NCBI RefSeq assembly: GCF_018336915.1 | Contig: NZ_CP064923.1 | Location: 540,998-564,997, forward strand | Direction of reading: 5' to 3' | Length of the DNA: 24,000 nucleotides | Origin: Acaryochloris marina S15 | GTDB lineage: Bacteria; Cyanobacteriota; Cyanobacteriia; Thermosynechococcales; Thermosynechococcaceae | Part shown: positions 7,275 to 10,615 of the stretch, piece after piece | How the letters are laid out: each line of letters opens with the position of its first letter | How positions within the stretch are numbered: the first letter of the stretch is position 1 | The notes under the pieces: model-generated | Seen by the model: the letters and a program-made list of their open reading frames with translations, nothing else | What the model was told of the DNA's origin: nothing | Databases searched by the model: none | Translations under genes and position numbers: made by a program

Positions 7275-7343
7275 CCTCGATTAGCTCAGCGGGAGAGCAC
7301 CGGGCTTATCCGGGGGGCGTAGGTTCAAATCCTACATCGAGCG
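7275..7343 (+). ncRNA. tRNA-like RNA with a full cloverleaf but no anticodon (the anticodon loop is a 4-nt tetraloop)
   Basis: Hand fold. Acceptor cctcgat (7275-7281) pairs with atcgagc (7336-7342): 6 Watson-Crick pairs plus a C1.C72 mismatch. D arm is gctc-agcggga-gagc. The anticodon stem ccggg/tccgg closes the loop ctta (7305-7308). The variable loop is ggggc. T arm is gtagg-ttcaaat-cctac. The discriminator is G7343. No CCA is encoded. The total of 69 nt equals a canonical tRNA minus 3 loop nt and 1 D-loop nt. Confidence 0.6.
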
Positions 7344-7346
7344 AAC

Positions 7347-7422
7347 CGAAAGCTAGCTCAGTTGGTAGAGCATCAGACTCATAATCTGACTGTCACAGGT
7401 TCAAATCCTGTACTTTCCACCA
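7347..7422 (+). tRNA. tRNA with anticodon CAU (Met or Ile2 type), gene-encoded CCA and mismatches at both ends of the acceptor stem
   Basis: 76 nt. D arm is gctc-agttggta-gagc. The anticodon arm is tcaga-ctCATaa-tctga, with the anticodon at 7380-7382. The variable loop is ctgtc. T arm is acagg-ttcaaat-cctgt. Acceptor cgaaagc pairs with actttcc, with C1.C72 and C7.A66 mismatches. A73 and CCA (7420-7422) follow. It starts only 3 nt after the previous unit. Confidence 0.8.
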
Positions 7423-7426
7423 CCCC

Positions 7427-7512
7427 GCCCTGGGTATGGGCACCTCGTTTAGGACGAGTTATGTCATCGGTACGGGAGCAATCCCAAGGTGGTTCAAATC
7501 CACTTGATAAGC
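7427..7512 (+). ncRNA. Third, chimeric tRNA-like unit or pseudo-tRNA with no 5' acceptor strand
   Basis: It has a D-like arm gccc-tgggtat-gggc. The anticodon-like arm is cctcg-ttTAGga-cgagt, with UAG, U33 and G37. A GNRA-capped hairpin ggga-gcaa-tccc lies at 7474-7485. A canonical T arm ggtgg-ttcaaat-ccact lies at 7488-7504. The 3' strand tgataag has no upstream complement at the expected place. It can pair only with ttat(g)tca at 7459-7466. Confidence 0.3.
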
Positions 7513-7838
7513 ATCCGGTTGTTGGTGTCTCGCGGTGAGTGTCACTCGGTGGCCGTCACTGCAACAGCCAAAGGCCAGCGCAATCGCATTGGATGATCGG
7601 TTTGAGTAGGTTCCTTTGAAGGGCAACCGCTGGGAGGAAATTCCAGGGGTTGCTGCTGCGAACGGCCTATCGGTTGAAGACAGAACCCAGGCTTAACCTT
7701 CGGGTGGGGCTGCGGTTCACCTTCAACTTAATCCAGCTGATCATGGGCGATTGCCCGCACTGTAACTGTGGAGACCAACAGCCTTGGGTGCTTTTAGATG
7801 TGGCCCCACATCTATGCGAGAAGAAGAAGGAAATAACA
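7513..7838 (+). other. Hairpin-dense, GC-rich non-coding spacer or leader between the tRNA-like cluster and the SPFH gene
   Basis: ggttgttg (7516-7523) pairs with caacagcc (7562-7569). A hairpin at 7623-7653 is formed by gcaacc..ctgg..ccag..ggttgc. A long hairpin at 7673-7727 (gttgaag/cttcaac and gaacc/ggttc) is capped by acc-UUCG-ggt. A hairpin at 7796-7813 (agatgtgg/ccacatct) sits just before the SD aaggaa. The ORF track reads part of this as coding from TTG 7650, which I consider unlikely. Confidence 0.4.
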
Positions 7839-9371
7839 ATGTTTAAGTCGTTTTATATCAAGCCCCATGAACGGGGTATGTTGTTTTATCGCAGCAAGTT
7901 TGAGATGTTTTTGCTGCCGGGTACCCATCGTCGCATGGGGTGGCATTGGCAGGTGAAGACTTTTGATTTAAATCAGCCCCAAGTCCAGATTGACCATTTG
8001 GAGATGTTGCTGCAAACCCATGCCCACAGTATGGATGAGTATTTTACGGTGGTGCGCACGGCTTATAACCAGGCTGCCTTAGTCCGGTTAGGACAACAAT
8101 GGTGCACGATTGGCCCGAATCAACTGCAAGCGTTTTGGCGGGGGTTTATTGAGGTAGAAGTGCACCTATTTAACCTAGATGAGGGGCTTGAACTGCCGTC
8201 TCAGTTTGTCCAGCGATTGCGAGACGTATCGCTACCAGATTTGAATCGGGTCTCAATTCCTGAATCCCAGTTGGGGATGCTCTATGAGCAGGATAATTTT
8301 GTTCGACCTCTGGCTCCTGGAGAGTATGGGTTTTGGACCTGCGATCGCAAAATCAGTATCACCCGCTATAATCGCACCCGCCCTGAACCCGATTTCTCTT
8401 TTGAGGAAGTGCTGATTGAGCGGCATCCCGAGTTTGTCGCTAGTCACTGTGAATCCGTGCAGTTGGGCAATCAGGAAGTTGCCATTGTCCGGTACCAAGG
8501 CAAAGCAATTACGATTTTGCCCCCCTGTAGTCGCAAGCTCTTTTGGAAAGGGGTTGCGGTTGAGGTGATTGATATCAGTGAAGATGCCAAGCTATCGCCA
8601 GTGCTCGTGGCCGAGCTGGTCGCGGGGTTACCGGAAGCCCTAGAGCTGGCCTATGATGTCTTACATATTTTGGAAGTTCCGGCCCAGCATTTAGGGCTGC
8701 TGTATGAAGCCAGTGCGTTTGTAGAGACGCTGACTCCGGGTTGGCATGTCTGGTGGACCTTTGGTCGGGCTTGGAAAACTGAAGTGGTGGATTTGCGTTT
8801 GCAAACCCTAGAGGTCTCCGGTCAGGAAATCTTGTCTAAGGATAAGGTGTCTCTTCGCCTTAACCTGACGGCGGGATATCGGATCACGGATCCCGTGCAG
8901 GCCAAAACTGGCTTGAGCAATATTGAGGATTATCTCTATAAAGAGCTTCAATTTGCCCTCCGCTCAGCAGTGGGCACCAAGTCTCTGGATCAACTCCTAG
9001 AAGATAAGGGGGCGATTGATGCTAGCGTCTCTGACCATATTCGCGAGAAAACGGAGCAGTATGGGGTTGTCATTGCTTCCGTGGGTGTCAAAGATATCAT
9101 TCTGCCCGGAGAAATGAAGGCCATTCTCTGTCAGGTGGTTGAAGCAGAGAAATCCGCCCAGGCCAACGTTATTCGTCGTCGGGAAGAGACGGCTGCCACG
9201 CGCAGTATGCTCAACACTGCCAAGGTGATGGAGAGTAATCCCGTGGCCCTGCGCTTGAAAGAGCTGGAGGTGTTAGAACGGATCGCGGACAAAATTGAGC
9301 ATATTCATGTCAATGGCGGTCTCGATAGTATCTTGACCGAGATGATTCGCATCAATGGGGCTAGAGAGTAG
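7839..9371 (+). CDS. Cytoplasmic SPFH/band-7 (PHB) domain protein with a repeat-containing N-terminal extension of about 370 aa
   Basis: The C-terminal region LRLNLTAGYRITDP...YGVVIASVGVKDIILPGEMKAILCQVVEAEKSAQANVIRRREETAATR is a typical SPFH core plus coiled coil. ATG 7839 is preceded by aaggaa 7 nt upstream. No TM helix is visible. The alternative start ATG 7743 would add MGDCPHCNCGD.... Confidence 0.85.
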   Translation: MFKSFYIKPHERGMLFYRSKFEMFLLPGTHRRMGWHWQVKTFDLNQPQVQIDHLEMLLQTHAHSMDEYFTVVRTAYNQAALVRLGQQWCTIGPNQLQAFWRGFIEVEVHLFNLDEGLELPSQFVQRLRDVSLPDLNRVSIPESQLGMLYEQDNFVRPLAPGEYGFWTCDRKISITRYNRTRPEPDFSFEEVLIERHPEFVASHCESVQLGNQEVAIVRYQGKAITILPPCSRKLFWKGVAVEVIDISEDAKLSPVLVAELVAGLPEALELAYDVLHILEVPAQHLGLLYEASAFVETLTPGWHVWWTFGRAWKTEVVDLRLQTLEVSGQEILSKDKVSLRLNLTAGYRITDPVQAKTGLSNIEDYLYKELQFALRSAVGTKSLDQLLEDKGAIDASVSDHIREKTEQYGVVIASVGVKDIILPGEMKAILCQVVEAEKSAQANVIRRREETAATRSMLNTAKVMESNPVALRLKELEVLERIADKIEHIHVNGGLDSILTEMIRINGARE

Positions 9372-9413
9372 GGGAATAGGAGCCGATTCACCATCAGCTC
9401 CTAAAGGCAAGAT

Positions 9414-9857
9414 ATGGAAGCAGTCATCTTTGTGGGCATTCAGGCCACAGGCAAATCGACGTTTTATCACCATCGGTTTGGTCGGACCCATGTGCGGATC
9501 AATCTGGATATGTTGAAAACTCGACATCGTGAGCAACAGTTTTTGTCCACCTGCCTAGATACCCGTCAACGCTTTGTGGTGGACAACACCAATCCCACTC
9601 CTGCTGATCGCCAGCGGTATATCCAGCCTGCCCAAGCACAGGGCTTCTCGATTACAGGGTATTACTTTGAATCGAAGTTGGCAGATGCATTGATACGAAA
9701 CTGCGATCGCACTCCCGACCAACAAATTTCAGATAAAGGGATCCGAGGAACAGCCTCTCGCCTCATCTTGCCTGCTTATGACGAGGGGTTTGACCAACTT
9801 TTTTATGTTCGTATTCTCCCCCATCAACACTTTGCAGTTGAGGACTGGCAACCATGA
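9414..9857 (+). CDS. P-loop kinase of the polynucleotide-kinase type (AAA_33 / PNK-like)
   Basis: Walker A is GIQATGKST at the N-terminus. FVVDNTNPTPADRQRY resembles the (V/I)DNTNP segment of PNKP / T4 Pnk-type kinase domains. The size of 147 aa equals a kinase domain only. It lies 42 nt after the SPFH stop and overlaps the next gene. Confidence 0.75.
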   Translation: MEAVIFVGIQATGKSTFYHHRFGRTHVRINLDMLKTRHREQQFLSTCLDTRQRFVVDNTNPTPADRQRYIQPAQAQGFSITGYYFESKLADALIRNCDRTPDQQISDKGIRGTASRLILPAYDEGFDQLFYVRILPHQHFAVEDWQP

Positions 9858-10615
9858 AATTTACTGAACTCGATCAAAAACTGAGAGTCTTTGAAACCGC
9901 TCATGATTTATGCGTTTTGCCTGGGTTGTACATGGTGGCTCGTTTGGATGGACGGAATTTTACCCGCTTAACCAAAGAAACCTTGGACTTAGAAGCCCCC
10001 TTTGATTCAGGCTTTCGGGATGCCATGGTGGCAACGGTTCAGCATTTGATGAACTGCGGATTTCGAGTGATGTATGGCTATACCCAAAGCGACGAAATCT
10101 CTTTACTGCTGCACCCAGAAGAGCAGACCTTTGCTCGTAAGCTGCGCAAGCTCAACTCTTTGCTGGCAGCGGAAGCCAGTGCTAAATTGTCATTGATCTT
10201 GGGCAGTATGGCTGTCTTTGACGGTCGCATCTCCCAACTGCCCACGGTTGATTTAGTCGTTGACTATTTTCGATGGCGACAGGAAGATGCCCACCGCAAT
10301 GCCCTCAATGCCCATTGCTACTGGATGTTGCGTAAATCGGGTGACTCCGCGAGCATGGCAACTCAGAAGTTAGAGGGATTATCTGTAGGCGATAAGAATG
10401 AATTGCTGTTTCAACTGGGGCAAATCAACTTTAATGACTTACCCCACTGGCAAAAGCGGGGAGTGGGTTGCGCTTGGCAGTCGTATCCAACGGCAGGCAT
10501 CAACCCTATGTCAGGGGAAGTCTCTCAAGGGACCCGCACGAAAATCAGCATTGAGGTCAACTTGCCCATGAAAGAAGACTACAGGGAATTTGTCCTCAAT
10601 TTAATGACTCGCTGA
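9854..10615 (+). CDS. Thg1-like protein (TLP), a tRNA(His) guanylyltransferase-family 3'-5' nucleotidyltransferase
   Basis: Family motifs are ARLDGRNF (first catalytic Asp), GYTQSDEIS (SDE metal-binding acidic pair), FRWRQEDAHRNALN, KNELLF and WQKRG. Its start overlaps the kinase stop (ATGA at 9854-9857). Confidence 0.9.
   Translation: MKFTELDQKLRVFETAHDLCVLPGLYMVARLDGRNFTRLTKETLDLEAPFDSGFRDAMVATVQHLMNCGFRVMYGYTQSDEISLLLHPEEQTFARKLRKLNSLLAAEASAKLSLILGSMAVFDGRISQLPTVDLVVDYFRWRQEDAHRNALNAHCYWMLRKSGDSASMATQKLEGLSVGDKNELLFQLGQINFNDLPHWQKRGVGCAWQSYPTAGINPMSGEVSQGTRTKISIEVNLPMKEDYREFVLNLMTR

Follow-up and report, generated by a model that had tools for sequence, protein, structure and literature searches.

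An SPFH/tRNA-like RNA module joined to a kinase–Thg1-like protein cassette in the Acaryochloris marina clade

Two conserved modules at one locus

This analysis concerns a locus in a 24,000-nucleotide (nt) stretch of the genome of the cyanobacterium Acaryochloris marina S15 (contig NZ_CP064923.1, positions 540,998 to 564,997; the whole stretch is called the window below). At this locus, tandem tRNA-like RNAs are followed on the same strand by genes for an SPFH/Band-7 protein, a polynucleotide kinase (PNK)-like P-loop kinase, and a Thg1-like protein (TLP) of the 3'-5' nucleotidyltransferase family. With a probability of about 60%, we read the locus as a fusion, specific to one lineage, of two modules that are conserved independently of each other; a part in RNA repair had earlier been predicted for each. 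The structural account, namely the anatomy of the locus, the separate conservation of its two modules, and the insertion or loss of one of them as a cassette, is observed directly in the compared genomes and is given with high confidence; from it we infer that the two modules cooperate in function.

The modules were compared in 80 species-level cyanobacterial genome loci with the SPFH gene and in 84 further loci with a TLP gene. A tblastn search within 6 kb of the SPFH genes placed the kinase and the TLP behind SPFH only in the window and in loci L001, L002, and L003, all from the A. marina clade, and both were missing from 77 of the 80 SPFH loci. Among the four diverged genomes with this arrangement the TLPs are 82-88% identical, and in at least four other cyanobacteria the TLP gene and the SPFH module are found on separate contigs. 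Locus L167 encodes an SPFH protein 87% identical to that of the window, shares its flanking genes, and lacks exactly the kinase-TLP stretch. Its gene order is desaturase, 353-amino-acid (aa) protein, RNA region, SPFH, a convergent 185-aa gene, glyoxalase, and DUF2396, and its flanks align with those of the window across the cassette junction. This comparison identifies the kinase-TLP dyad as a cassette of about 1.25 kb that was inserted or lost as a unit; its composition profile gave no signature of foreign DNA.

In the proposed mechanism, module A (about 7190-9371) would be a cyanobacteria-wide unit of the ribonucleoprotein type, whose long structured transcript would carry two cloverleafs, an acceptor-less element, and a structured leader ahead of the gene for a soluble SPFH protein laid out like the vault protein. 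Module B (9414-10615), a widespread kinase-TLP dyad, would be an insertion of about 1.25 kb just behind SPFH in the A. marina clade. The kinase may turn 5'-OH ends into 5'-phosphates, and the TLP may restore 5' nucleotides that tRNA-shaped RNAs have lost, copying from the 3' acceptor strand, with the SPFH/tRNA-like particle acting as a scaffold, sensor, or decoy within the same RNA-damage response. The tRNA-like RNAs would be SPFH partners and would not have evolved to serve the TLP, although unit 2, given its NNCCA overhang and 6-bp stem, looks like a usable TLP substrate.

Table 1. Features of the locus (positions in the window)
Feature	Position	Strand	Description
Conserved non-coding leader before unit 1	7190..7274	+	Hairpin motif CTGACTGG...GTGTACCGCC
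tRNA-like unit 1	7275..7342	+	Cloverleaf, shortened anticodon loop, C1*C72
tRNA-like unit 2	7347..7422	+	7-nt loop (CAU), 6-bp acceptor core, C1*C72, C7*A66, encoded ACCA tail
Third element, acceptor-less, tRNA-like	7423..7512	+	Hairpins 7427-7441, 7444-7458 (7-nt loop), and 7474-7485; T-arm 7488-7504
Structured RNA leader reaching the SPFH start codon	7513..7838	+	326 nt
Soluble SPFH/Band-7 protein	7839..9371	+	510 aa; Pfam Band_7
PNK-like P-loop kinase	9414..9857	+	147 aa, kinase domain only; Walker A GIQATGKST
Thg1-like protein (TLP), 3'-5' nucleotidyltransferase family	9854..10615	+	253 aa; Pfam Thg1 and Thg1C
Terminator-like hairpin	10683..10697	+	Follows the TLP stop codon

The tRNA-like RNAs and their conservation

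A first-pass annotation of the window, made from its sequence, had described three tandem tRNA-like units with an identical T-arm core. The core GGTTCAAATCC does occur three times on the forward strand (at 7322, 7398, and 7491), with 0 copies expected. Two of the units are cloverleafs according to both ARAGORN and the Rfam tRNA model (gathering score 29 bits), whereas the third is an element of four hairpins, the last of them a T-arm, with neither a cloverleaf nor an acceptor stem; it went undetected by ARAGORN, the Rfam tRNA model, and R1, a covariance model of the tRNA-like units built in this analysis. Unit 1 scores 52.7 bits with the Rfam model (7275-7343) and 71.8 bits with R1, and unit 2 scores 61.1 (7347-7419) and 80.1 bits, respectively. 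ARAGORN reports unit 2 as tRNA-Met(cat) and unit 1 as 'tRNA-???' with an abnormal two-base 'anticodon', because the anticodon loop of unit 1 is shortened. The spacer between the third element and SPFH, which had been called hairpin-rich, folds at -139.6 kcal/mol (z = -4.9 versus shuffles). A promoter scan upstream of the RNA region yielded nothing useful.

The SPFH/tRNA-like module occurs widely: species-representative genomes contain at least 410 stretches that match it. In 73 of the 80 loci, ARAGORN called between one and three tRNA-like genes upstream of SPFH and on its strand; the other neighbors of SPFH differ from genus to genus, and those immediately 3' of it are unrelated housekeeping genes. 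Three types of unit can be told apart: unit 1 with the acceptor GTTTGAT/ATCAAAC, unit 2 with the acceptor core GAAAGT/ACTTTC, and an occasional unit 3. In the family alignment, all cloverleaf stems of the tRNA-like units contain compensatory substitutions, exemplified by a covarying T-stem pair of unit 1 (GC in 33 copies, AU in 21) and by a covarying anticodon-stem pair (CG in 30, UA in 26). The 'anticodon' at orthologous positions changes freely across genera and also among Acaryochloris genomes (CAT, CAC, TAT, TTT, GTT, TAG, and others), so that orthologs lack the stable anticodon identity of a decoding tRNA. The anticodon loops of unit 1 are often just 3-6 nt long. From these compensatory stems, free 'anticodons', and short unit-1 loops we conclude, at the level of sequence comparison, that the tRNA-like units are selected, structured, non-decoding RNAs.

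Conservation extends to both sides of the cloverleafs. The 75 nt 5' of unit 1 align in about 65 cyanobacterial loci, which suggests that the RNA starts further upstream and that processing, not transcription initiation, generates the 5' end of unit 1. In most genera this stretch combines conserved sequence with a hairpin, CTGACTGGTGCGCC...GAGCGTATACCGCC. Within the Acaryochloris clade, the alignment of the RNA region, including the stretch before unit 1 and the leader, is 89% identical. The third element was aligned in 23 loci, where its hairpins show compensatory changes, and 23 of the 116 consensus pairs of the leader show compensatory change among five close relatives.

The junctions between the units are also informative about their ends. 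The unit-2 tail is NCCA in 54 of 75 family members. At most loci outside Acaryochloris (e.g. L008 and L056), unit 1 is followed by NCCA or NCCC, so that in most genera the final letter of the CCA-like tail of unit 1 serves as 'position 1' of unit 2. A single cut at this junction would free a unit 1 with a CCA-like end and a unit 2 with a 6-bp stem. The linkers of Acaryochloris are 5 nt long (GAACC in the window) and contain no CCA.

The arrangement of the module varies in some genomes. In L165 (Acaryochloris thomasi RCC1774) and L166, with SPFH genes 73-75% identical to that of the window, either no tRNA-like unit lies within 850 nt upstream of SPFH (L165) or the tRNA-like pair lies about 2.9 kb upstream, past two opposite-strand genes (L166); the linkage can thus loosen. 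A reverse transcriptase of about 350 aa is encoded between the tandem tRNA-like units and SPFH, on the same strand, in 15 of the 80 loci (including L041, at 4182-5234, L007, L013, L036, L061, L066, L071, and L072), several of which have an extra tRNA-like copy between the reverse transcriptase and SPFH. The best PADLOC model for the inserted enzyme is the retron type XIII reverse transcriptase (E 9.6e-150); the published retrons of type XIII have WH-SWIM and ARM proteins as their linked partners, and neither SPFH nor tRNA-like RNAs (PMC7736814).

The SPFH protein

Profile searches returned Band_7 for the SPFH protein, AAA_33/PNK-like for the kinase, and Thg1 with Thg1C for the TLP, in agreement with the families to which the first-pass annotation had assigned all three proteins. 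The Band_7 match (PF01145; 108 bits, E 6e-31) covers residues 279-450. Its counterparts in A. marina MBIC11017 and two Acaryochloris metagenome-assembled genomes share 92-93% identity with the SPFH protein of the window; this protein has thousands of relatives, and the best 120 are cyanobacterial proteins of about 508 aa with 64-96% identity. The family is absent from the viral contigs searched. The protein contains no transmembrane or hydrophobic segment (maximum Kyte-Doolittle 19-aa mean 1.36), which is unusual among SPFH proteins.

The AlphaFold2 model of the protein (predicted local distance difference test score, pLDDT, of 82) predicts that the N-terminus (residues 1-272) consists of four beta-rich repeats, each about 67 aa long and made up of five strands plus a helix; the SPFH domain comes next, and a long helix closes the C-terminus. 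The repeat region modeled alone reached a pLDDT of 49 and is unusable. Foldseek matched the full model to stomatin, HflKC, and prohibitin, and aligned it with the major vault protein (MVP) over about 585 columns (E about 1e-13), but with a TM-score of only about 0.3. At the sequence level, no Pfam family was found in residues 1-279 and no Pfam Vault match was obtained. Judging from the model, the SPFH protein may form a vault-like soluble assembly with the tRNA-like RNAs as its small RNAs.

The neighborhood of the locus is typical of cyanobacteria, with genes for DUF2396, a desaturase with DUF3474, and PsbU-like and Ycf66 proteins.

The kinase and the Thg1-like protein

The kinase matches Pfam AAA_33 (E 1e-9), the kinase region of the NCBIfam PNK-3'Pase model (TIGR01663; E 8.5e-14), and, among structures in the PDB, the kinase domain of mammalian PNKP (E 4e-8). 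The TLP scores 101.9 bits with PF04446 (cut-off 29.2) and 63.3 bits with PF14413 (cut-off 26.3); its nearest solved chains are the Methanosarcina acetivorans TLP (5AXK), human Thg1 (3OTB), and the Bacillus thuringiensis TLP (4KGK). Residue D32 and the triplet S79-D80-E81 are invariant in 15 homologs, and D32, D80, and E81 presumably correspond, by motif, to the metal carboxylates D29, D76, and E77 of human Thg1. With the invariant D and SDE and the Walker A motif present, both enzymes look intact.

As had been noted in the first pass, the SPFH and kinase genes are separated by 42 nt and the kinase and TLP genes overlap by 4 nt (ATGA). There is no terminator-like site between SPFH and the kinase, the first such site following the TLP gene. 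Since the cassette also has the orientation of SPFH, the kinase and TLP are probably transcribed by read-through from the SPFH gene. No PADLOC defense-system model matched the SPFH protein, the kinase, or the TLP.

Homologs of the TLP are 65-72% identical across Cyanobacteria, Chloroflexota, and Bacteroidota. The first-pass annotation proposed a survey for conserved linkage of its parts, which bears out the pairing of kinase and TLP (the kinase is directly upstream of the TLP in 56 of the 71 other, metagenomic, loci with sufficient upstream DNA) and finds no extension of it to SPFH, which adjoins none of the 84 other TLPs. The dyad also occurs in unrelated contexts in Nostoc piscinale, Cyanosarcina, and a Caldilineaceae genome. 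Operons of a PNK-family kinase and a Thg1-like protein, with the kinase suggested to supply the 5'-phosphate, were published in 2010 (Anantharaman, Iyer & Aravind, Biol Direct 5:43; PMC2904730), and the same role, ascribed to the kinase of the window from sequence, is accepted here on that earlier inference. The preference of a bacterial (B. thuringiensis) TLP for 5'-truncated tRNAs in vitro, also invoked in the first pass, is documented (PMC3061083).

R1 detected no hidden tRNA-like units at the 84 other TLP loci. Dense tRNA arrays were present at three metagenomic loci. These same-strand arrays of nine, five, and two genes (L147:629-1609, L092:1-400, and L134:764-913) lie just 5' of kinase-TLP or of a TLP alone; the tRNA-His of L147 encodes G-1 and yet has C1 opposite C72. 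Thg1-family genes are also common in large phage contigs. Among 80 phage contigs with such genes (L169-L248, e.g. L175, L195, L209, L212, L221, and L224), 17 have them within 5 kb of tRNA genes, several of these inside arrays of 5-20 tRNAs, and only one has the kinase. Siting near tRNA-type genes is thus a recurring theme for the Thg1 family, given the three metagenomic arrays and the 17 phage contigs. In Nostoc piscinale CENA21 (L081:4151-6798), hisS, the AAA_33 kinase, and the TLP are consecutive on one strand, which hints at a tRNA-His-related role of the dyad in this strain.

Acceptor-stem mismatches and competing explanations

In both complete units of the window, an encoded C1 faces C72 (7275/7342 and 7347/7418), just as the first-pass annotation had recorded. 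In unit 1, pair 1:72 is intact in all but 4 of the 66 copies and is G:C in about 60. The mismatches are confined to the window, L003, L050, and L168; the genomes are those of the window, A. marina MBIC11017, Cyanobacteria bacterium P01_G01_bin.54, and Spirulina sp. SIO3F2, all of which encode a TLP; its gene is linked to the module in the window and MBIC11017 and lies on another contig in the other two genomes. The mismatches represent three independent events, none of which falls among the roughly 59 other copies, and TLP status is established for only part of the compared genomes. The consensus C72 is kept and position 1 changed in the window, L050, and L168. At the TLP-linked loci, unit 1 has C*C (window), U:A (L001), U:A (L002), and G*A with C2*C71 (L003), and unit 2 has C*C, U:A, U:A, and U*C, respectively; unit-1 1:72 is likewise paired in Lusitaniella. 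In unit 2, 1:72 is unpaired in 63 of 79 copies from all genera, with or without a linked TLP, including C1*A72 in the TLP-less relative L167. C2*A71 occurs in 15 mostly Nostoc copies with no known TLP. By this comparison, the C1*C72 of unit 1 in the window is a strain-specific exception and not a family trait. The suggestion that the TLP meets a general need to install G1 is not supported, because the four TLP-linked loci differ at 1:72.

The tRNA-like RNAs had been proposed to be dedicated substrates of the kinase and TLP, their encoded, mismatched 5' nucleotides being excised and new ones added by templated 3'-5' synthesis (G opposite C72). Such editing is possible and would account for C1*C72 in both window units, for the restriction of unit-1 mismatches to genomes known to carry a TLP in three independent events, and for the retention of C72 where position 1 differs. 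The 6-bp stem and NNCCA end of unit 2 resemble, by analogy, the 5'-truncated tRNAs preferred by the B. thuringiensis TLP, and the tRNA genes near other Thg1-family genes, in the three metagenomic loci and 17 phage loci, point the same way. An editing system would, however, be expected to show acceptor mismatches wherever the TLP is present, and they are found in the window and L003 yet not in L001 and L002, where both units have U1:A72 next to a linked kinase and TLP. The TLP-less L167 has its mismatch all the same, as do the Nostoc copies at C2*A71, and unpaired 1:72 in unit 2 is family-wide; judged by its distribution, the unit-2 shape is older than any TLP link and persists beyond it. No nuclease to remove mismatched nucleotides is encoded nearby, and the association with TLP covers genomes of known TLP status, a minority of those compared. 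The RNAs belong with SPFH across cyanobacteria, 77 of 80 loci being without a nearby kinase or TLP, which speaks against dedicated substrates. The conservation data thus do not favor editing, which we regard as rather unlikely. The narrower version, in which the SPFH-linked RNAs of TLP-bearing cyanobacteria are kinase/TLP substrates whose 5' acceptor strand is rebuilt from the 3' strand at a vault-like SPFH particle, appears unlikely.

The adjacency may also be a matter of chance, if a mobile dyad, at work in the upkeep of tRNA-His or in tRNA quality control at large, happened to insert where a gap between convergent genes tolerated it and has no functional tie to the SPFH module. The dyad does stand alone in varied contexts, as after hisS in Nostoc piscinale; SPFH is absent from the 84 other TLP loci; the insertion was one event, between the SPFH stop codon and a convergent gene; and at least four cyanobacteria keep the two modules on separate contigs. 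Against this, the cassette is co-oriented with SPFH across a gap of 42 nt free of terminator-like sites and has been kept in four diverged genomes, landing beside one of the genome's few loci of tRNA-shaped non-decoding RNA is improbable, and RNA repair was predicted independently for both modules; we consider coincidence quite unlikely. Far less credible is the view that the units are ordinary decoding tRNA genes or decaying pseudogenes that merely precede SPFH. The tRNA-Met(CAT) call of unit 2 with its encoded CCA and the scores of both units above the Rfam threshold would fit it, but orthologous anticodons change between genera and within Acaryochloris, the unit-1 anticodon loops are non-canonical, and a position and order by SPFH conserved in 73 of 80 genomes with compensatory substitutions is unexpected of pseudogenes. 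With anticodons that vary and loops that are anomalous, the units were rejected as ordinary tRNAs.

The fusion of two RNA-repair modules, which we prefer, has its own difficulties. The adjacency goes back to a single evolutionary event in one clade and alone cannot separate function from chance. Neither the window nor the 80 SPFH loci contain an RNA ligase or another repair gene: none, RtcB included, is found among the open reading frames (ORFs) of the window, and a motif search of the ORFs at the 80 loci returned no RtcB motifs. The role of SPFH as an RNA partner is suggested by gene linkage, and homology of the tRNA-like units to the 'b7a-tRNA' described below is proposed from a second-hand description.

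Relation to known systems and implications

Module B is already on record. The window resembles the published PNK-Thg1 operons (PMC2904730) in both families, gene order, and tight overlap, and differs from them in that the dyad directly follows SPFH and tRNA-like RNAs and has no MACRO-domain or RNA-ligase partner. Module A fits the second-hand description of a Band-7 protein with an adjacent non-coding RNA strongly resembling tRNA ('b7a-tRNA'), conserved in linkage and located beside RtcB (bioRxiv 10.1101/312249). Both features, the Band-7 protein and the adjacent tRNA-resembling RNA, recur here with linkage conserved in 73 of 80 loci. The described cases adjoin the RtcB ligase, which was found neither among the ORFs of the window nor by the motif search at the 80 cyanobacterial loci, and the enzymatic partner in the window is the kinase and TLP. 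As far as that description goes, the cyanobacterial version also differs in its two or three tandem units, acceptor-less unit, and long structured leader. No Rfam family exists for b7a-tRNA.

Burroughs and Aravind are said to have proposed the Band-7/b7a-tRNA pair in 2016 as cofactors in RNA-repair operons. The Rsr(Ro60)-YrlA-RtcB operon of Salmonella and others likewise combines a scaffold protein, a tRNA-mimicking non-coding RNA, and end-healing or sealing enzymes. Its protein is a TROVE ring in place of the SPFH fold, and its RNA differs: identity of the window RNA with YrlA or Y RNA was rejected at 17 bits against a threshold of 69 bits.

Amoebozoan mitochondrial tRNA 5'-editing (DdiTLP3; PMC6471195, PMC5041481) shares with the locus tRNA-shaped RNAs with encoded mismatches at the first acceptor pairs, and a TLP of a kind that can perform templated 3'-5' repair. 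That editing is demonstrated, and its mismatches recur in many essential tRNAs, whereas those of the window are strain-specific, lie in non-decoding RNAs, and are known from genes alone. The eukaryotic vault resembles the predicted particle in its repeats, SPFH-like shoulder, long helix, and small structured non-coding RNAs; MVP has about 860 aa and nine repeats, as against about 510 aa and four repeats in the window protein, which is known here from a model with a TM-score of about 0.3 and has no Pfam Vault match. True bacterial MVP homologs belong to a different family (bioRxiv 10.1101/872010).

As far as the second-hand description shows, the cyanobacterial module is more elaborate than the published pairing: its tRNA-like units number two or three, and it adds an acceptor-less unit, a long structured leader, and a soluble SPFH protein with a vault-like layout. 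We know of no established physiological substrate of a bacterial TLP and of no established function of the Band-7/tRNA-like pairing, both having been approached by comparative genomics alone. The present locus places these two questions in one probable operon, in the culturable A. marina MBIC11017, and supplies natural controls in a cassette-less syntenic relative and in sister strains with paired or mismatched 5' ends, so that both become directly testable. If the tRNA-like RNAs did prove to be TLP substrates, a bacterial 3'-5' polymerase would have its first physiological substrate, and tRNA 5'-editing a bacterial analog. The chief value of the locus is as a tractable experimental entry to two uncharacterized systems.

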